Assembly: GCA_032128415.1 (NCBI GenBank)
Contig: JAQBGW010000096.1
Coordinates: forward strand, 2,592 to 66,591
DNA from: Betaproteobacteria bacterium
Lineage (GTDB): Bacteria; Pseudomonadota; Gammaproteobacteria; Burkholderiales; SG8-41
Direction of reading: 5' to 3'
DNA: 64,000 nt
Shown here: one piece after another, positions 40,333 through 59,001 of the stretch
Numbering within the stretch: the first letter of the stretch is position 1
Layout of the letters: each line of letters opens with the position of its first letter
The notes under the pieces: model-generated
The model's database searches: none
Told to the model about the DNA's origin: nothing
Seen by the model: only the letters and a program-made list of their open reading frames with translations
Translations under genes and position numbers: made by a program

Positions 40333-40896
40333 CTAAGCCTGCACCAACGTCAGATCAAACCTCGCCTGCCAAACGCCCAGCGCATCACGGCGCAGCGTTG
40401 CCTGCAATGCTTCAGGAATGTCGCGTTCAGATCCAAAATAGAGTTGGGTGACCAGCGCCGCATGGCCAGGGTGGCTGACGCGGTAATGAATATGGCGCGG
40501 GCGGCCCGGATATTCGCCGGGCAGAATAGTCGAATAGCGGTACTGCCCCGCGCCATCCGCCGTCAGGCGGGCGCGCAGCAAGCAGCGTTGATCATCTCGC
40601 GCACCGCCGACCTGCGTGTATTCGCCACGCGCATCCGCTTGCCAGACTTCCACGCGCGCGCCGGCCAGCGGCGCGCAGCTTGGTAAACCGGTGACGCGAC
40701 CGGTGACTATCAATTTTTCTGCGCCACCGCTACCACTCGCGCACAATTCACCGCTTGCCGGCGCGCCGCTTTTGTAATACGGCCCTAGCGTATCGCGCGG
40801 TGTCACCCTGCATTGTTGCGCCAGCGCAGTCCACGGCGCCGCGCACAGGCCCAGACCGGCCAATATCAACCGCCGCTTCTGCGCTGACAGCCTCAT
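40333..40896 (-). CDS. Tat-signal intradiol-dioxygenase-like protein
   Basis: 187 aa from the ATG at 40896 (MRLSAQKRRLILAGLGLCA, a twin-arginine-type signal). It has the core EVWQADARGEY...PGRPRHIHYRV of the dioxygenase_C fold. The track start at 40974 translates the 52-bp repeat. Confidence 0.75.
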   Translation of the reverse strand: MRLSAQKRRLILAGLGLCAAPWTALAQQCRVTPRDTLGPYYKSGAPASGELCASGSGGAEKLIVTGRVTGLPSCAPLAGARVEVWQADARGEYTQVGGARDDQRCLLRARLTADGAGQYRYSTILPGEYPGRPRHIHYRVSHPGHAALVTQLYFGSERDIPEALQATLRRDALGVWQARFDLTLVQA

Positions 40897-40945
40897 GTTC
40901 AAACTTTCGGTACCGCCATGCCGCGCTGCACTGCGGGGCGAGCCG
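40894..40945. repeat. 52-bp direct repeat, copy A (displaced GST 3' end)
   Basis: It matches 44525-44576 at 49 of 52 positions in the same orientation. It ends, on the minus strand, in the dioxygenase ATG. Confidence 0.95.
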
Positions 40946-41445
40946 GGTAGCACGACAATACGAGTTCCCTTCATTTTTCTCTCCCTGGACAGACGTCCGG
41001 TACCGGCGCAAACCGGTTGCCGCTACGCAATGTTTTTGTTCAGCGTCTCAGACTAACGGAAAATCCGGATGGGGTCAGCACTACGTTGACGCCGAGCGGG
41101 ATCCGTTACGGTGAAATTGTCCGACGGCAGGCGCTTCGACAGGCGCGTTTAAGAGTCAATCTGTTGCTTGGCTCAGATTTGACTGGCACTACGAAGTTGC
41201 CGAATGGCCTGTAGCGCAAGAACGTTGCGAATGCGGTGGCGATGTCTGGCGACTGTCCGGTGCCCGGCGGGCTACTTTGCAAGTGCCGCTTGCTAGCCCT
41301 TTCTGCTATCGTTGCCGTCTTTGTTCCGGGGCCAACGACCCGGACAGCAACTTGGCAGAGGCGCGATGCGGCAAGCGGTGAATCCGATAAGAGTGCGTCT
41401 TGATACGATGGCGTTGCCCGCTCGTTCGAGAAAAGCGTTGCGCCA

Positions 41446-42246
41446 GTGAATGGCTTGACCGACTGGCTGGCCATGCAAGGTCGCGGATTCTCCGATCGGC
41501 TCGATGCTTGGGTGCGCGTATTCCGATTCGCCTACATCGCCATCGTCGGCGTATTCTCGCCGTCCACCTACAACAAGGCAACTCGGCTGGTGGTGGAAAA
41601 GCAAATCTACTTCAGTGCCTGGCAGATTCTGTCCGGATTCACTGCGTTCGCGGCGCTATTCAGTTTGCTGATCATTCAGATCATTGCCGCGACCGGGCGC
41701 ACATACGGGTTGAACGAGTATGCACTCGAACTGATCGTACGCGTTCTTGTTCTCGAAATTCTGCCACTGATGACCGCGCTGTTCCTCGCCCTGCGCACAG
41801 GCGCGGCGATCAACACCGAGGTGGCACTGATGAAAATCCAGAATGAGCTTGACGCACTGCAACGCGTCGGCGTCGATCCGCTGCGCCTTGAATTGCTGCC
41901 GCGCGTGATCGGTGGCACAGTATCGGCACTGGCTCTGACCGCGGTCAATGTCGTTGTTGCGCTCTTGCTCACATATCTGCTGGTCATTGAATTTAATCCC
42001 TGGACTTTGACCAGTGGCGATTTCACTCGCATGATCGGAAAGGTGTTCGATATGCCGGCGCTGATGGTGTTGTGGGCGAAGACGCTGGCATTTGGGTTCG
42101 CGGTGACGGTGATTCCGATTTCGGAGGGGTTGAGCATTCCGCAAAAAATGTTCTATGCGCCCATCTCCGTCTTGCGTGGCATGGTCCGGCTGTTTTTCGC
42201 GCTGATGCTGATCGAAGCGTTAGCGCTCGCTGTCCTTTACGTGTAA
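41446..42246 (+). CDS. MlaE-family ABC permease
   Basis: 266 aa, using a GTG start. LRTGAAINTEVALMKIQNELDALQRVGVDPLRLELLPRVIG matches the conserved MlaE/Ttg2B core. Confidence 0.8.
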   Translation: MNGLTDWLAMQGRGFSDRLDAWVRVFRFAYIAIVGVFSPSTYNKATRLVVEKQIYFSAWQILSGFTAFAALFSLLIIQIIAATGRTYGLNEYALELIVRVLVLEILPLMTALFLALRTGAAINTEVALMKIQNELDALQRVGVDPLRLELLPRVIGGTVSALALTAVNVVVALLLTYLLVIEFNPWTLTSGDFTRMIGKVFDMPALMVLWAKTLAFGFAVTVIPISEGLSIPQKMFYAPISVLRGMVRLFFALMLIEALALAVLYV

Positions 42247-42250
42247 TTGC

Positions 42251-42733
42251 ATGAATACGTCAAACGAAAAATCCACAGCGATTGAGCGTGTTGTCCTGGT
42301 CTCAAATGATGCCGAGCGCCGCCAATTTATTGAAGCGCATCCACACGCCGTTTTGGTGTCGGATAGCCTGCCGTTACGTGCAAATCTTTCCGTGATTGAA
42401 AACATCACAGTTGCGCTGCAATTTAGTACCGACAGGTATATCGGCGAGGACAGTGACGCGGCCTGGGAACTGCTGAATCTGGTCAGTTTTTCCGGGTGCG
42501 CAGAGCGGCGCGACCCCGATTTGACCTACGAGGAACGCTTCGTTGCCAAGCTGCTGCGGGTCATCGTGCTTGCGCCGTCTATAATCCTGATCGACCGTCC
42601 TGCGCAACTCTTGCCGGACAGCAACTATCCTTTTTTCCTTAACAAGCTGTTACTCGCGCTCGACGGGCGATTCGAGCAGTGCTTGATCCTGGACTACACA
42701 TGGAACGCCCCTCTGTACAACAGCCCCGCGTAA
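42251..42733 (+). CDS. degenerate half ABC ATPase domain (no Walker A; Q-loop, signature, Walker B Glu and switch His all replaced)
   Basis: 160 aa that aligns by eye to MlaF from the Q-loop onward. The pairs are LVSDSLPLRANLSVIENITVAL ~ LFQSGALFTDMNVFDNVAYPL; LTYEERFVAKLLRVIVLAPSIILIDRP ~ LSGGMARRAALARAIALEPDLIMFDEP; and ILDYT ~ VSHDV. Confidence 0.6.
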   Translation: MNTSNEKSTAIERVVLVSNDAERRQFIEAHPHAVLVSDSLPLRANLSVIENITVALQFSTDRYIGEDSDAAWELLNLVSFSGCAERRDPDLTYEERFVAKLLRVIVLAPSIILIDRPAQLLPDSNYPFFLNKLLLALDGRFEQCLILDYTWNAPLYNSPA

Positions 42734-43698
42734 ACCACCTTGGCGTCAAGGTCGGGGTAGTGCTAACAATGATTCCTGTCATTGCGATCGGACTGTTGCT
42801 CTACGCGCTCTACGCACGCGGCGTATTCGAACGCACCCAGGCTCTTACATTGATCGCGCCGGACGCGGAAGAGGTGGTGGTAGGCATGCCAATCATGTTC
42901 TCCGGGTTTCCTATTGGCCAGGTGTCGGGCATTGCACTGGATGTGCACGGCAGCGTACGCATTGATGTTCGTATCCGGCAGAAGGACGCGCGCTGGCTGC
43001 GCGTTAGCAGCGAGTTCTCGCTGGAAAAGAAAATTCTGGGCGGAGCGAAAATCCGGGCGCTGTCAACCCGGATGCAGGATCCAGAACTTCCGGCAGGATC
43101 GGAGCGCCCTCTTTCCAGCAATGACGCGGCACAGGGTATTCCGCAAGTGATTGCCCGCGCCAACATTATCCTGAATAACATTGACGCGATTATTCAGCCT
43201 GATTCCAGTTTCAATCGGACGTTCGCAAATCTGAAATTAATTACCGAACGCATGAGCGGCGAGTATGGCGTGCTGGGCGGAATAGCGGGCAGTCCTGAGG
43301 AAGCCAGGAAAATGCTCGACACCGTGAACGGTGTGAACGCGTTGCTTTCATCGCTGAGAAGCGTAAGCACGCGTGCCGAGCGCTTGCTTGCAAAAACCGA
43401 CGACAAATTTCTAAGTGAGGGCGGCGTGCTGGATTCAGCCAATGAAACCCTGCTTCGCTTGAACGCAATATTATCCGAGGCCAGCCAGAGCCTGAAAAAA
43501 GTCGATACTGTGCTGGCAACAGCGCAGACTAGTGCCTCGGAAATTAAAAGCGCTGCCACCAATGTCAAAGACGCGACCACCGATCTTGGTGAGTTGCGGG
43601 CGGAGGTTAATATCAGCATACGCAAGGTCACTGGCTTAATCGACGAAATTAACCGCAAATGGCCATTCGCGCGCAAGTCAGGAATCGAGCTCCCGTGA
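42700..43698 (+). CDS. MCE/MlaD-family protein with long helical C-terminal extension
   Basis: It has an N-terminal TM segment (VVLTMIPVIAIGLLLYAL) and an MCE domain (VVGMPIMFSGFPIGQVSGI...VRIDVRI). About 200 aa of helical tail follow. I used the ATG at 42700; an alternative GTG lies at 42679. Confidence 0.78.
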   Translation: MERPSVQQPRVNHLGVKVGVVLTMIPVIAIGLLLYALYARGVFERTQALTLIAPDAEEVVVGMPIMFSGFPIGQVSGIALDVHGSVRIDVRIRQKDARWLRVSSEFSLEKKILGGAKIRALSTRMQDPELPAGSERPLSSNDAAQGIPQVIARANIILNNIDAIIQPDSSFNRTFANLKLITERMSGEYGVLGGIAGSPEEARKMLDTVNGVNALLSSLRSVSTRAERLLAKTDDKFLSEGGVLDSANETLLRLNAILSEASQSLKKVDTVLATAQTSASEIKSAATNVKDATTDLGELRAEVNISIRKVTGLIDEINRKWPFARKSGIELP

Positions 43699-44360
43699 AG
43701 GCTGTATTTTTTTCCGCTGTGCTGCTGCTGGCTGCTTGCGCCGCCGGGCCGATACCGCCTGAATGGCAATCGCAATCTCACGCGGCAATGGAAAGATTCA
43801 GGCAGCAGTATCTTGATGGCAGTTCCAGGCTTGCGGAACGCAGTTTTGCGGAAGCGAAAGCGGCGGTCGCGTCAACTGGCAGGCCCGCGCTTTTGGCGCG
43901 AGTGCAGCTGGTGCGCTGCGCGCTTGCGACAGCGGCACTGGACTTCGATACGTGCGCAGACTTCGACACCTTGCGTGACGATGCGACGGAGGACGATCGG
44001 GTTTTTCGATCGTTTCTGAATGGTCAGTGGCAGAGCCGGGACTTGAACAGACTGCCGACGCAGTATCGAAATGTTGTGTCTGCGCGCGACGAAGCCGCGC
44101 GCAACAAGTCCATGCAACAGATAGAAGATCCTGTTTCACGTCTGGTTGCGGCCGGAGTCTTGTTCCGCCTTGCGCAGTTATCCCCGGACGGGCTTGCGGC
44201 TGCTATTGAATCGGCTTCAGCGCAAGGCTATCGCCGACCACTTCTGGCCTATCTAAACGTTCAGGCTACCCGTGCGGAAGCGGCTGGTGATACCGAAGCC
44301 CTGAAATCGATTCAAAAACGCATCAATCTGGTTTATCAATCGCTGCCAAAAACTAACTAG
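43695..44360 (+). CDS. lipoprotein of unknown family, translationally coupled to the MCE gene
   Basis: The GTG start overlaps the MCE stop (GTGA). It has the lipobox VLLLAAC and a mostly helical Ala/Leu/Arg-rich body. I recognise no family. Confidence 0.55.
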   Translation: MKAVFFSAVLLLAACAAGPIPPEWQSQSHAAMERFRQQYLDGSSRLAERSFAEAKAAVASTGRPALLARVQLVRCALATAALDFDTCADFDTLRDDATEDDRVFRSFLNGQWQSRDLNRLPTQYRNVVSARDEAARNKSMQQIEDPVSRLVAAGVLFRLAQLSPDGLAAAIESASAQGYRRPLLAYLNVQATRAEAAGDTEALKSIQKRINLVYQSLPKTN

Positions 44361-44524
44361 CTGAATATTACGAATGGGTTGGGCGGCGCATGCCAGCTTG
44401 ATCGTCGTCAAACTTGCTTCCGTCCGTAGTTCAACAACCCTTGCATACCTTTGGTCGGATGCGCCAGAATCGCTTCCTCCGACAGGACGTTGAAGAACAG
44501 ATGCGTTGTGGCAGCGTGGCACGC

Positions 44525-44576
44525 CATGTTCAAACTTTTGGCACTGCCATGCCGCGCTGCACTGCGGGGCGAGCCG
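44525..44576. repeat. 52-bp direct repeat, copy B (functional 3' end of the GST gene)
   Basis: It encodes the last 15 codons (SARPAVQRGMAVPKV), the stop and AACATG of the GST gene. It matches 40894-40945 at 49 of 52 positions. Confidence 0.95.
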
Positions 44577-45153
44577 AAATTTTATCGAACCAGTGTTTAA
44601 CACTGGGGAAGTCATTCAGATCGGTCTTGTGCCACTCATAGCGCGCCACCCACGGATAAGTTGCCATGTCAGCTATGGTGTATTCGCCGGCAGCGAGCCA
44701 CTCGTGACCGGCCAGATGTTTGTCGAGCACGGCGTAGAGTCGCCGCGTTTCACTAACATAGCGCTCGATGGCGTAGGGCACCGGTTCTTTCGCAGCGCGC
44801 AGGAAGTGATGCACCTGACCGAACATCGGGCCCACGCCGCCCATCTGGAACATCAACCACTGTAGCGCATCATATCGTTCGCGCACGGCCTGCGGCAGAA
44901 ACTTTCCGGTCTTTTCAGCGAGATAAATCAGGATCGCACCGGATTCCATGAGCGCGATGGATTTATCGTCTGGCCCTTCGGGATCGACGATGGCCGGGAT
45001 CTTGCCGTTGGGATTGATGGCAAGGAAATCGGGCTTGAACTGGTCGCCCTGGCCGATGTGGATGGCATGCGTTTTGTACGGCAGGCCGCACTCTTCCAGC
45101 ATGATGGAAACCTTGCGACCGTTGGGTGTGGTCCAAGTGTATAAGTCGATCAT
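44530..45153 (-). CDS. glutathione S-transferase, YfcG/Nu-class-like
   Basis: 207 aa with MIDLYTWTTPNGRKVSIMLEE, NPNGKIPAIVD and ESGAILIYLAEK. Confidence 0.88.
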   Translation of the reverse strand: MIDLYTWTTPNGRKVSIMLEECGLPYKTHAIHIGQGDQFKPDFLAINPNGKIPAIVDPEGPDDKSIALMESGAILIYLAEKTGKFLPQAVRERYDALQWLMFQMGGVGPMFGQVHHFLRAAKEPVPYAIERYVSETRRLYAVLDKHLAGHEWLAAGEYTIADMATYPWVARYEWHKTDLNDFPSVKHWFDKISARPAVQRGMAVPKV

Positions 45154-45187: not shown

Positions 45188-46285
45188 TTATTTTAATGCG
45201 GCGCGCAATGCGTCCAGCCGTGCCTGTGCCACGGCCGCCTTGATATCCCCCGCCGCCTGCTGGCCCGCGATCGCGCCGGCATCCACTGCCCGCGTTGCGT
45301 CATGCGCGCGCTGCAGGCGCAAGCGTGCGCGATCCCTGTCAGCTTCTCCGGCCAGCGCCGCCTGAGTCAACGCGGTGAAACGCTCGGGGCGGCGCCAGGC
45401 GTCGCCCGCTTCAAGCAGCACCATGATCTCTTCAGCATCCAGTTCAACAGCGTCAGCCAGCGCATGGGCATGGCGCGCCGCCAGTACCGCCAGTTCGCGG
45501 CAGGCCGCGGGCGCCCTCATGCGCGCGCACAGCACCTCGACCGCTTCAGGTTCCAGCGCGCGCAGCAGCGCAGCGAAACGCACTTCCAGCGTGGCTTGGC
45601 TGTGCGCGGCAGCATCCAGCGCCGCCAACGCTTCATCGGCACGCCCGTCGTCATACAGCGCATTGATCTGCGGGAACACTCTCGCCAGCGCGCCGCAATC
45701 GCGCAACACCGCAAACATCGCTGATGGCGCAGACTCCATCAAACCCTTAGCCAATTCCTGCCACACCCGTTCGGCCACCAGGGCATCAGCCTCGCCGGCC
45801 TGCACCATCTGCATCATCAGCGCCTGAGTTTCTGGTGCAATCGCAAAGCCAAAGCGCGCTGCAAAGCGTGCGGCCCGCAGGATGCGCACCGGATCTTCTG
45901 CAAAAGCCGGGCTGACATGGCGCAACAAGCCGCGGCCCAGATCTTCAGCACCGTGGTGTGGATCAATCAGCCGACCGGATTCGTCGCGCGCCATCGCATT
46001 GATTGTCAGATCGCGGCGCTGCAAGTCCTGTTCCAGCGTCACGTCTGGCGCAGCGTGAAAGGTAAAGCCGTGATAACCGGGGGCGGTCTTGCGCTCGGTG
46101 CGCGCCAGCGCATATTCCTCATGGGTCTGCGGATGCAGGAACACCGGAAAGTCACGGCCAACCGGCCGGTAGCCGAGCTTGACCATTGCCTCCGGTGTCG
46201 CGCCGACCACTACATAATCGTGATCCTGCACCGGGAGGCCGAGCATTTCATCACGCACCGCACCACCGACTACGTAAGTCTTCAT
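45188..46285 (-). CDS. cca: tRNA nucleotidyltransferase (CCA-adding enzyme), short form without HD motif
   Basis: 365 aa with MKTYVVGGAVRDEMLG, DHDYVV, RRDLTINAM and the ERTERK-like motif. The C-terminal half lacks the His/Asp residues of the E. coli HD domain. Confidence 0.88.
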   Translation of the reverse strand: MKTYVVGGAVRDEMLGLPVQDHDYVVVGATPEAMVKLGYRPVGRDFPVFLHPQTHEEYALARTERKTAPGYHGFTFHAAPDVTLEQDLQRRDLTINAMARDESGRLIDPHHGAEDLGRGLLRHVSPAFAEDPVRILRAARFAARFGFAIAPETQALMMQMVQAGEADALVAERVWQELAKGLMESAPSAMFAVLRDCGALARVFPQINALYDDGRADEALAALDAAAHSQATLEVRFAALLRALEPEAVEVLCARMRAPAACRELAVLAARHAHALADAVELDAEEIMVLLEAGDAWRRPERFTALTQAALAGEADRDRARLRLQRAHDATRAVDAGAIAGQQAAGDIKAAVAQARLDALRAALK

Positions 46286-56893: not shown

Positions 56894-59001
56894 ATGCCGG
56901 TTTTTTGCGAGAGCAAATCCAGCAGATGCTCCTGCGCACCAATAGGCTTGGCGCGACCGGGAGCCCGGCAGGCATAGTGGCCGTCTTCACCCATGATCCA
57001 GGCTCGTGTGTTGTCATCCAGATACGGATGCAGTCCTTCGGCAATCACCCGGCGCTTGAGCGCGGCATCAAGTATTGGAAAGCAGACTTCCACACGACCG
57101 AAAAAATTGCGCCCCATCCAATCCGCACTGGACAAATAAACACTCTCTGCACTGTCGTTATAAAAATAAAAAATGCGGGTATGTTCGAGAAAACGCCCGA
57201 TGACCGAGCGCACCTGGATATTTTCTGACATACCGGGCACGCCCGGACGCAGCGCGCACACGCCGCGCACAATCAAATCGATCTGCACCCCGGCCTGCGA
57301 CGCCCGATACAGCGCGCCGATGACTTCTGGTTCGAGCAAAGCGTTCATCTTGGCGATGATCTGCCCTTTGCGTCCGGCGCGGGCATGTGTTGTCTCCTGC
57401 TCGATCGCCCGCAGCATTTCCTTGTGCAACGAGAACGGCGATTGCAGCAGGTGGCGCAGCCGTGTTGCGCGACCGAGTCCGGTCAACTGCATGAACACCT
57501 CGGACACGTCGTTGCCGATTTCCTCGTTGCAGGTAAACAAGCCGAAATCCGTGTAGAGGCGTGCCGTACGCGGATGATAGTTACCGGTAGACAGATGCAC
57601 GTAGCGCCGCAGACCCTCGCCCTCGCGCCGCACCACCAGCAGCATCTTGGCATGGGTCTTGTGGCCGACCACGCCGTACACCACATGCGCGCCGATATCT
57701 TCCAGCCGCTGCGCCCAGTTAATATTGGCTTCCTCATCAAAACGCGCCATCAGTTCGAGCACTACGGTCACTTCCTTGCCGCTGCGCGCGGCACTGATCA
57801 GCACTTCCATCAATTCGGATTCAGCTCCGGTGCGGTATACCGTCATCTTGATTGCCGCCACCGCCGGATCGCGCGCCGCCTGCTGCAGAAACGCGATTAC
57901 GGGCTGGAACGACTGATAGGGGTGATGCAGCAAAACGTCGCCGGTGCGCACCACGCCGAACAAGTCATCGAGCGACTGCATTCCGGGCAGCAGGCCCGGT
58001 CTGAATTGTGGAAACTTCAAATCCGGCCGGTCCACCCAGTCCGGAACGCTGATCACGCGCGCGAAGTTCACCTGGCCATCGACACGATACAGATCCGTCT
58101 CGTCGAGCTTGAATTGCATCAGCAGGAAGCTTGAAATATGCTGCGTACAACTATTGTCCAATTCCAGACGCACCTCATCGCCGAAATGGCGGTGCGGCAG
58201 CTCACCGCGCAGCGCGGTGCGCAGATCCTTGACTTCTTCCTCGTCCACGAACAGGTCGCTGTTGCGGGTCAGGCGAAACTGGTAGCAGCCCAGCACTTTC
58301 ATGCCGCTGAACAACTCACCGACGTGCTCGTGCAGGATGGAGGACAAAAACACGAAGTCATACTCAACGCCCGCCACATCCTGCGGCAGACGAACCACCC
58401 GCGGCAGCACCCGCGGTGCCTGAACGATGGCGATGCCCGAATTGCGACCGAAGGCGTCCTTGCCCTCCAGTTCAACGGCAAAATTCAGACTTTTGTTGAG
58501 AACCCGCGGAAACGGGTGTACCGGATCAAGCCCGATGGGCGTCAACACCGGCATCACTTCCCGCATGAAATAGCTCTTGACCCAATCGGCTTGCAGCGGA
58601 GTGAATTCACTGCGCCGCAGAAAGCGGATGCCCTCCTGCTTCAGTCCGGGCAGAATTTCCTCATTCAGCAACTGGTACTGGCGGGCGACTAGTTCGCGGG
58701 CTTCCTGAGCCACCTGCCCGTAAACCTGATCGGGGCGCAACTGATCGGGATTGATCGACGAGGATCCGGCTTCAATCTCGGCATGAAGAGCGGCAACGCG
58801 AATCTCAAAAAATTCGTCCAGGTTGCTGCTGACGATGCACAGGAAGCGCAAGCGCTCCAGCAACGGATGGGTGCGATTCTCGGCCTGCGCCAGCACGCGG
58901 CGGTTGAACGACAGCAGACCGAGCTCGCGGTTGAGATAGAACTCCGGCGTAAAACCCGTCTTGCCGGGCTTGCGCCGGGGTTTGCGGGCGACTGCGTTCA
59001 T
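56890..59001 (-). CDS. ppk: polyphosphate kinase 1
   Basis: 703 aa with FYLNRELGLLSFNRRVL, the autophosphorylated His context HKTHAKMLLV and tandem PLD-like C-domains. Confidence 0.96.
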   Translation of the reverse strand: MNAVARKPRRKPGKTGFTPEFYLNRELGLLSFNRRVLAQAENRTHPLLERLRFLCIVSSNLDEFFEIRVAALHAEIEAGSSSINPDQLRPDQVYGQVAQEARELVARQYQLLNEEILPGLKQEGIRFLRRSEFTPLQADWVKSYFMREVMPVLTPIGLDPVHPFPRVLNKSLNFAVELEGKDAFGRNSGIAIVQAPRVLPRVVRLPQDVAGVEYDFVFLSSILHEHVGELFSGMKVLGCYQFRLTRNSDLFVDEEEVKDLRTALRGELPHRHFGDEVRLELDNSCTQHISSFLLMQFKLDETDLYRVDGQVNFARVISVPDWVDRPDLKFPQFRPGLLPGMQSLDDLFGVVRTGDVLLHHPYQSFQPVIAFLQQAARDPAVAAIKMTVYRTGAESELMEVLISAARSGKEVTVVLELMARFDEEANINWAQRLEDIGAHVVYGVVGHKTHAKMLLVVRREGEGLRRYVHLSTGNYHPRTARLYTDFGLFTCNEEIGNDVSEVFMQLTGLGRATRLRHLLQSPFSLHKEMLRAIEQETTHARAGRKGQIIAKMNALLEPEVIGALYRASQAGVQIDLIVRGVCALRPGVPGMSENIQVRSVIGRFLEHTRIFYFYNDSAESVYLSSADWMGRNFFGRVEVCFPILDAALKRRVIAEGLHPYLDDNTRAWIMGEDGHYACRAPGRAKPIGAQEHLLDLLSQKTGI

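Follow-up and report, generated by a model that had tools for sequence, protein, structure and literature searches.

Cis-mobilizable elements (CIMEs) are documented elements that retain the attachment sites attL and attR without integration genes (PMC5704250). Non-mobile DNA can also be acquired through homology-facilitated illegitimate recombination, which has been described in Acinetobacter, Streptococcus, Pseudomonas stutzeri, and E. coli conjugation. This form of illegitimate recombination, which is anchored by homology, has also been proposed for type VI secretion system (T6SS) and Rhs loci, where it would displace the old downstream gene and leave "orphaned" 3' regions behind (PMC3240628, PMC5361080). 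Here, we describe a locus that shares features with both. It lies in a 64-kb stretch of contig JAQBGW010000096.1 (the window, meaning the whole stretch of 64,000 nucleotides that was analysed), which comes from a metagenome-assembled genome (MAG) of an uncultured Burkholderiales lineage. Within it, a 3.6-kb segment carrying MCE/Mla-type transporter genes (the insert, or cassette) separates a glutathione S-transferase (GST) gene from an intradiol-dioxygenase-like gene, and is bracketed by two 52-nt copies of the GST 3' end. An earlier note on this DNA had taken the segment for a foreign integrative element. The best explanation, which we hold to be probable, is instead that a non-mobile piece of a chromosomal operon was inserted between the GST and the dioxygenase gene without a dedicated recombinase.

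The two repeats, copy A next to the dioxygenase gene and copy B at the end of the GST gene (coordinates in the table below), are direct repeats with an identity of 49/52 and a longest exact core of 31 nt; on re-check, their positions and identity were exactly as reported in the earlier note. Copy B forms the actual end of the 207-residue open reading frame (ORF) of the GST and, on the minus strand, reads ...SARPAVQRGMAVPKV, TGA, AC, ATG. In keeping with its orthologs, the dioxygenase-like gene starts at the ATG that closes copy A (40896-40894); its product begins with MRLSAQKRRLIL... and carries a twin-arginine-type signal, so that the ORFs and the orthologs agree with the assignment of both copies made earlier. 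The equivalent ATG of copy B nowadays opens a mere 39-codon ORF. Homology is lost abruptly at the outer borders of both repeats, a sharpness that had been noted before and that the alignment of these borders reproduces. It had also been a concern that the 52-mer might be a common dispersed repeat, but only two matches with at most three mismatches occur in the whole 64-kb window, where none is expected (100 shuffles). As a side observation, the right end of the insert together with the first bases of copy B (44517-44550 on the plus strand, TGGCACGC followed by CATG) resembles an internal motif of copy B (TGGCACTGCCATG). This likeness of TGGCACGC and TGGCACTGCCATG is due to two of the three bases by which copy B departs from copy A, and it could reflect junction microhomology, a templated patch, or coincidence.

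The GST neighbourhood was scanned in relatives, with one genome per species and 80 loci whose GST is 66-88% identical to that of the window (loci and records are cited by L numbers). None of the four cassette genes is found at the GST site in any of these 80 relatives, and most of the loci keep the order epimerase, CCA-adding enzyme, GST, a variable slot, cytochrome c, and methyltransferase. In L004 (GST 88% identical), the inferred start of the dioxygenase gene (GTG) lies 4 nt past the GST stop, and in L007 (86%) its ATG lies 7 nt past that stop; in more distant relatives the dioxygenase gene is located 70-230 nt downstream of the GST. Its distribution is patchy, with L003, L005, L008, L179, and L183 lacking it, and its identity to the L004 and L007 orthologs is similar to that of cytochrome c and the methyltransferase (63-68%). 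The relatives without the cassette and the narrow spacing of the two genes in L004 and L007 support the view that the GST and dioxygenase genes were formerly adjacent and that 3.6 kb entered between them. The segment between the repeats is thus a lineage-specific insertion that splits a tightly linked GST-dioxygenase pair. The earlier note had arrived at the same separation of once-adjacent genes, and the comparison of the flanks with related genomes that it proposed did yield empty sites (L004 and L007). An empty-site junction is expected to read GST...TGAACATG-AGGCTGTC.... Further cassette-free sites were obtained from the 90% cluster of the GST; they resemble the species representatives, include members in which cytochrome c directly follows the GST, and contain no near-identical empty allele. 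An exact look-up of the 187-residue dioxygenase product expected from an empty-site allele returned no record and is uninformative.

The slot between the GST and cytochrome c (L003-L082, L179-L186) is either empty or occupied by the dioxygenase gene, a zinc alcohol dehydrogenase, a MacB/HlyD exporter, TctC, a hydrolase, or TauE. Those occupants that were tested in relatives proved to be ordinary genes of metabolism and transport, along with two ORFs without a Pfam match. No recombinase or mobility-gene family was found among these tested ORFs, which makes the slot a recombinase-free hot spot of gene turnover.

The same structure recurs in five independent assemblies (L001, L002, L172, L177, and L178) that are 99.1-100% identical. 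Two of them are MAG contigs from NCBI (L001, 99.89%; L002, 99.69%), and the remaining three are Logan contigs from other samples. All five show the same three repeat differences wherever both copies are covered, with copy A unchanged in L001, L002, and L177. Strain L172, which is 0.87% diverged from the window, has one extra difference in each copy (GCT>GCG in copy A and GCA>GCG in copy B), both at GST third codon positions. An assembly artefact or a MAG chimera might be suspected, as the sequence derives from a MAG and repeats are able to mislead assemblers. However, identical junctions and repeat differences were recovered from different samples with different assemblers, including the diverged strain, and the collapse of a repeat is unable to create a junction between non-GST DNA and a 44-nt GST fragment, so that an artefactual origin is hardly credible. 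Apart from this, the gene for the CCA-adding enzyme is broken into ORFs of 245 and 110 residues in L002 (8015-9110, corresponding to 45188-46285 of the window), probably by an assembly or strain frameshift; L002 and the window differ by two indels over the aligned region.

The origin of the insert is indicated by its homologs. A search for MlaD homologs returned 6,262 sequences, the nearest of which beyond this species are 74-76% identical. In every cassette homolog of 64-81% protein identity with readable flanks (NCBI, JGI, ENA, and Logan records), the genes stand in a six-gene operon of the order HpcH/HpaI-like gene, mlaE, orf160, mlaD, lipoprotein gene, and p174, where p174 encodes a 174-residue membrane protein that closes the operon (e.g., L083 7953-12244, L086, L087, and L171). 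Where the flank is long enough, the neighbourhood of this home locus comprises RraA, acyl-CoA dehydrogenase, CoA-transferase, TctC, and a cupin or GFO/IDH/MocA oxidoreductase, transcribed divergently. In genome JANXPQ01, a home locus (L170) coexists with a GST locus that lacks the cassette (L040). No mobility gene or recombinase stands beside the operon in the home loci inspected, and the search for the cassette next to a tyrosine or serine recombinase, which the earlier note had recommended, accordingly found no such case in these loci.

The insert is collinear with this chromosomal operon of the same Burkholderiales clade, and the similarity extends beyond the coding regions. A stretch close to its left end aligns with the leader just upstream of HpcH in the home loci (BLASTN records L083-L085, L087, L090, L093, and L094, of which L083-L085 share one sequence there). 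At the left end itself, the Shine-Dalgarno sequence and ATGAA are common to the home loci, GTGCT aligns in L083, L086, and L171, and 18 of 29 nt after the ATG match L083. This is suggestive of a ribosome-binding site (RBS), a start codon, and about 10 codons of a truncated divergent oxidoreductase gene. None of the home-locus neighbours that were sought (RraA, acyl-CoA dehydrogenase, CoA-transferase, TctC, cupin, and others) is present in the 64-kb window, so that the operon piece may have been either relocated or acquired, and the collections searched contain no donor closer than 76% MlaD identity. By its collinearity and the leader alignment, the insert is a trimmed derivative of the clade's own chromosomal operon. 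The description of the insert as a "foreign element" is not supported, since it corresponds to a fragment of an operon that occupies one conserved home locus in every close homolog with readable flanks.

The base composition of the insert deviates from its surroundings in a genuine yet modest manner. Its G+C content is 55.7%, compared with 59.4% for the window and ~61% for the flanks, and no other 3.6-kb stretch of the window has a lower G+C content or departs more strongly in tetranucleotide usage. The earlier note had called it AT-rich on the basis of 60-nt samples, which overstates the deviation; the five counts themselves are right (45, 42, 45, 65, and 73%) but unrepresentative. Likewise, the windowed comparison of G+C and tetranucleotide content proposed there does set the insert apart from its flanks, although only by a modest amount. 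The G+C content at third codon positions (G+C3) is 0.57-0.71 for genes inside the insert versus 0.67-0.73 for those outside, with mlaD and the lipoprotein gene at 0.57-0.62. The possibility that low G+C is intrinsic to the operon was ruled out, as the G+C3 of the home-locus operon equals that of its neighbours. The low values of mlaD and the lipoprotein gene at the present site are therefore a mild hint, short of proof, at a somewhat lower-G+C relative as the source of the fragment.

We next consider how the segment could have arrived. No recombinase gene is found within 10 kb on either side of the insert, in agreement with the earlier statement that none is left, and the insert contains no transposase. 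Terminal inverted repeats are absent as well (aligned locally, the two ends reach a score of 7 versus a shuffle mean of 6.9), and folding of the repeat as DNA, for both strands and both copies, gave z-scores of -0.6 to +0.6 and no attC-like structure. Searches of plasmid and phage DNA gave no match to the insert. A second GST 3' end within 10 kb downstream of the GST was found in 0 of 79 other genomes, and the site is thus not a recurrent att site. These results bear directly on the reading given in the earlier note, according to which a site-specific element entered the GST 3' end with its own replacement end (an attP mimic) and its integrase was then lost, as in a CIME, or acts in trans. Such an element would explain why the direct repeats include the 3' end of the target gene, why the GST stays intact, why the repeats differ at synonymous sites only, as if both copies had evolved as coding sequence, and why the composition deviates mildly. 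On the other hand, neither a nearby recombinase nor a plasmid or phage match nor any reuse of the site speaks for it, the content is a collinear operon with its native leader and an apparent neighbour-gene stump that directly abuts the repeat, and decay of an island would need two internal deletions that end exactly at the att borders. Furthermore, no cassette homolog with readable flanks stands in an element-like context. The "classic attL/attR logic" of a decayed island or a trans-mobilised element is thus not supported, and we consider it unlikely. A transfer that relies on homology instead would also dispense with a recombinase: a circle formed by RecA from the insert and one 52-mer (with a junction reading ...GTGCTACC-52-mer-GCGTGCC...) would re-integrate in a Campbell-type event at a GST-TGAACATG-dioxygenase junction, and the two repeats would stem from two genomes. 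This accounts well for non-identical repeats that differ at synonymous sites alone and for a repeat that spans the GST stop and the dioxygenase ATG, and the 31-nt exact core is in its favour. Nevertheless, it covers the spread of the cassette and not its origin, the cassette is found in a single species-level lineage, and 52 bp with a perfect run of 31 nt lie near the lower limit for RecA-dependent recombination. Logan contig L177, which begins and ends in the repeat, is the usual outcome of a k=31 assembly graph and no evidence of a circle. This route, too, appears improbable to us.

Still more doubtful is the idea that the cassette is a recombinase-less or trans-mobilised unit that uses its mimic of the GST stop and dioxygenase start as an address label, be it as att site for an unlinked recombinase or as homology handle for RecA; if true, the 52-mer would give non-autonomous DNA an unusual means of targeting one particular gene junction. 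Finally, the polarity of the event may be reversed, so that the cassette was resident beside the GST and the dioxygenase gene came in from a GST-dioxygenase relative, bringing along 44 nt from the 3' end of that foreign GST. The patchy occurrence of the dioxygenase gene among relatives fits this scenario, as does the Val codon of copy A, which is xTA as in the dioxygenase-bearing L004 and L007. However, AC-ATG follows the stop in copy B too, which under this scenario would be a chance match (~1/1000, less telling if CATG is junction microhomology), and no relative has the cassette beside the GST without the dioxygenase gene. In addition, the dioxygenase, cytochrome c, and methyltransferase are alike in their identity to L004 and L007, as expected from vertical descent. 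We therefore give this reversed order very little credence.

The three differences between the repeats deserve closer attention. They are GCG/GCA, GTA/GTG, and CCG/CCA, and all of them concern codon position 3 and are synonymous in the GST frame; the codon comparison confirms the earlier note in this respect. They are found in consecutive codons, with the other 45 nt being identical (clustering p ~0.03), which argues for a single event such as a short recombination tract rather than three hits. The chance of 1/27 calculated in the earlier note assumes three independent hits and does not suit sites in consecutive codons. When the polymorphisms of L172 are added, 5/5 variable sites in the two copies are GST third positions. 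Outgroups suggest GCG GTG CCG as the ancestral state, by which copy B would carry two derived changes and copy A one, a distribution that does not separate the explanations. Synonymous-only variation in a supposedly dead 44-nt fragment is the residual unusual point of this locus and is poorly explained by a one-off insertion followed by neutral decay. We accept that the variation looks coding-derived, yet it would need no attP. It is expected if the incoming DNA carried its own GST end, or if either copy later recombined with cassette-free GST-dioxygenase alleles that are under coding constraint. That both copies have evolved as coding sequence, as was claimed earlier, is thus plausible, but recombination with another GST allele explains the pattern equally well.

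The data show a lineage-specific insertion with empty sites in relatives, an insert of chromosomal-operon origin, and a lack of mobility features; how the joints were formed and where the three differences came from is inferred. The operon was probably cut inside the divergent neighbour gene at one end, and at the other end the cut would lie 164 nt beyond the lipoprotein gene. The fragment would then have been inserted, in the ancestor of the species-level lineage, between the YfcG-type GST gene and the dioxygenase gene 2 nt after it. The joints may have been formed by illegitimate recombination, by homology-facilitated illegitimate recombination with incoming DNA, or by a replication template switch, with the first two being the most likely route; arbitrary insert ends without mobility genes or terminal repeats are what illegitimate recombination produces. 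The 52-bp repeat would represent the overlap of the two joints, which left the last 44 nt of the GST, TGA, AC, and ATG on both sides, and the three differences would most simply be a single short patch derived from a different functional GST allele, which arrived with the insert or through later recombination with a cassette-free allele. Possible microhomologies are CGGC at the left joint and CATG as well as a TGGCAC...GCCATG quasi-repeat at the right joint.

Several points weigh against this insertion of a non-mobile operon piece. An overlap of 52 bp is long for illegitimate joints, and homology-facilitated recombination presupposes a donor whose cassette already lay beside GST-TGAACATG, hence a two-step history. 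Moreover, neutral decay of copy A fits the third-position-only variation poorly (p ~0.007-0.013), and an element that brought a GST-like end of its own would produce such variation just as readily. The homology of the left end to a GFO-like gene amounts to the 18/29 nt and the RBS, and the low G+C3 of mlaD and the lipoprotein gene is unexplained if the fragment stems from the same genome.

Table. Features of the insertion locus (positions in the window).
Feature	Position	Strand	Remarks
Intradiol-dioxygenase-like gene	40333..40896	-	Twin-arginine-type signal; once 2 nt past the GST stop; Pfam PF00775; L004/L007 orthologs
Repeat copy A	40894..40945	-	Vestigial final 44 nt of GST, then TGA, AC, ATG (= start of dioxygenase-like gene)
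Inserted segment, 3,579 bp	40946..44524	+	Absent at the site in 80 relatives
Probable start of truncated GFO/IDH/MocA-like gene	40946..40985	-	Probable RBS GGGAGAG (40979-40985), ATG (40974-40972), ~10 codons (MKGTRIVVL); home-loci alignment
Conserved operon leader/promoter region	41284..41365	+	Hairpin ~41326-41343; BLASTN 75-82% to seven home-locus records
HpcH/HpaI-like remnant, 27 codons	41366..41449	+	DNA alignment
mlaE, MlaE-family permease, 266 aa	41446..42246	+	Pfam PF02405, E=3.9e-36
orf160, ABC ATPase relic, 160 aa	42251..42733	+	Weak NCBIfam matches to LolD/LptB profiles
mlaD, MlaD/MCE-domain protein, 332 aa	42700..43698	+	Pfam PF02470, E=2.4e-08
Lipoprotein gene, 221 aa, fourth operon gene	43695..44360	+	LLAAC lipobox; home-locus orthologs 48-73% identical
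Right-end 164 nt	44361..44524	.	No detectable homology to home-locus p174 gene
Repeat copy B	44525..44576	-	Functional GST 3' end (...ARPAVQRGMAVPKV*), then AC, ATG
YfcG-like glutathione-dependent oxidoreductase (GST), target gene	44530..45153	-	Pfam GST_N/GST_C; NCBIfam PRK13972, 235 bits

Among the genes of the insert, mlaE is 75-81% identical to most of its home-locus orthologs (68% in L100) and orf160 is 64-77% identical to its counterparts in the home loci (e.g., L083 9552-10034). The product of orf160 matches profiles of ATP-binding cassette (ABC) ATPases solely at positions ~90-190, from the Q-loop to Walker B, and has no Walker A motif; as read from the sequence, IILIDRP stands where the Asp-Glu of Walker B would be expected. 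It has no Pfam match, and the lipoprotein could be assigned to a family neither in Pfam nor in NCBIfam. The home loci inspected contain no ABC_tran gene and encode no canonical MlaF-type ATPase, and this MlaE/MlaD family may therefore work without an ATPase of its own or borrow one. Between the window and L172, coding changes are mostly synonymous, with no non-synonymous change in mlaE. A rough estimate from these counts gives a ratio of non-synonymous to synonymous substitution rates (dN/dS) of ~0.2 and a dS of ~0.02. These values indicate that the cassette genes are maintained and, by the same counts, that the cassette is functional and under purifying selection.

The HpcH/HpaI-like gene has kept its first ~14 codons and its last few, with the interior deleted. 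The TGA of this remnant overlaps the GTG with which mlaE begins, just as the stop of the full HpcH gene does in the home loci, which suggests that the translational coupling to mlaE is retained. No HpcH-like coding sequence is found in or beside the insert, the sole weak match being at 57104-57208, and tblastn (E<=10) detected no HpcH or p174 remnant at the insert ends; the leader and the HpcH remnant were found by DNA alignment only. The leader (~80 nt) is 75-82% conserved across genomes with ~75% protein identity, and the stem of its hairpin (41326-41343) shows apparent compensatory changes. It could be a regulatory element. An Rfam scan of 40800-44700 (E<=1) gave no match, the leader included, and a scan for promoters and terminators found sites no more numerous than in shuffles.

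The GST retains an intact 3' end. Upstream of the dioxygenase gene there now lie copy A and the apparent stump of the oxidoreductase-like gene. The dioxygenase gene has thereby lost its upstream partner and would sit behind the RBS and the start codon, and presumably also behind the promoter, of this truncated neighbour. Gene callers place here a 213-residue ORF on the minus strand (40333-40974), which starts at the ATG of the stump (40974) and runs through copy A in the +2 frame into the dioxygenase. The 213-residue "dioxygenase" of public MAGs thus appears to be a chimera of three sources, namely an oxidoreductase-like stump that contributes the RBS, the ATG, and 9 codons, a vestigial GST end in a different frame, and the true dioxygenase with its Tat-like signal. 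Annotations are affected by this chimeric ORF and by the reduction of the operon's first gene to a 27-codon remnant.

Through this event, the lineage gained an MCE/Mla-type transporter operon. The locus is a cleanly resolved natural case of operon gain by a chromosome without mobile-element machinery, in which the empty site, the home locus, and the scar are all visible. It also calls for caution, as direct repeats that hold the 3' end of a gene are insufficient to call an integrative element.

With regard to its cargo, the insert can be compared with the Mla/MCE (MlaFEDB-type) lipid-transport ABC systems, with which it shares an MlaE permease, an MlaD/MCE protein, and a lipoprotein. Unlike those systems, it has a 160-residue ATPase relic without Walker A instead of a canonical MlaF, and its home-locus operon starts with an HpcH/HpaI aldolase-like gene. 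With regard to its borders, it resembles a transposon or insertion sequence with target-site duplication in that the insert is flanked by a direct duplication of the target, but the duplication measures 52 bp rather than 2-14 bp, its copies are non-identical, and there are neither inverted repeats nor a transposase. The resemblance to CIMEs and decayed integrative elements is closer, since these likewise have repeats with the 3' end of the target, an intact target gene, and no integrase inside. In contrast to CIMEs (PMC5704250), however, the insert consists of part of a chromosomal operon along with truncated neighbours, none of the sampled genomes offers an integrase-bearing relative, other genomes do not reuse the site, and no core/arm organisation can be recognised in the 52-nt repeat. 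The products of homology-facilitated illegitimate recombination offer the nearest parallel: non-mobile DNA is added beside a conserved gene, with arbitrary ends and without recombinase or inverted repeats, and the old downstream gene is pushed away, here carrying a piece of the 3' end of the upstream gene. The present case differs from them in that the displaced piece consists of 44 nt of coding sequence plus the start of the next gene and that a 52-bp duplication is found instead of a deletion; the process itself is read here from the sequence. The event is thus of a known kind, namely gene gain by recombination without element machinery, with a duplicated gene end left behind.

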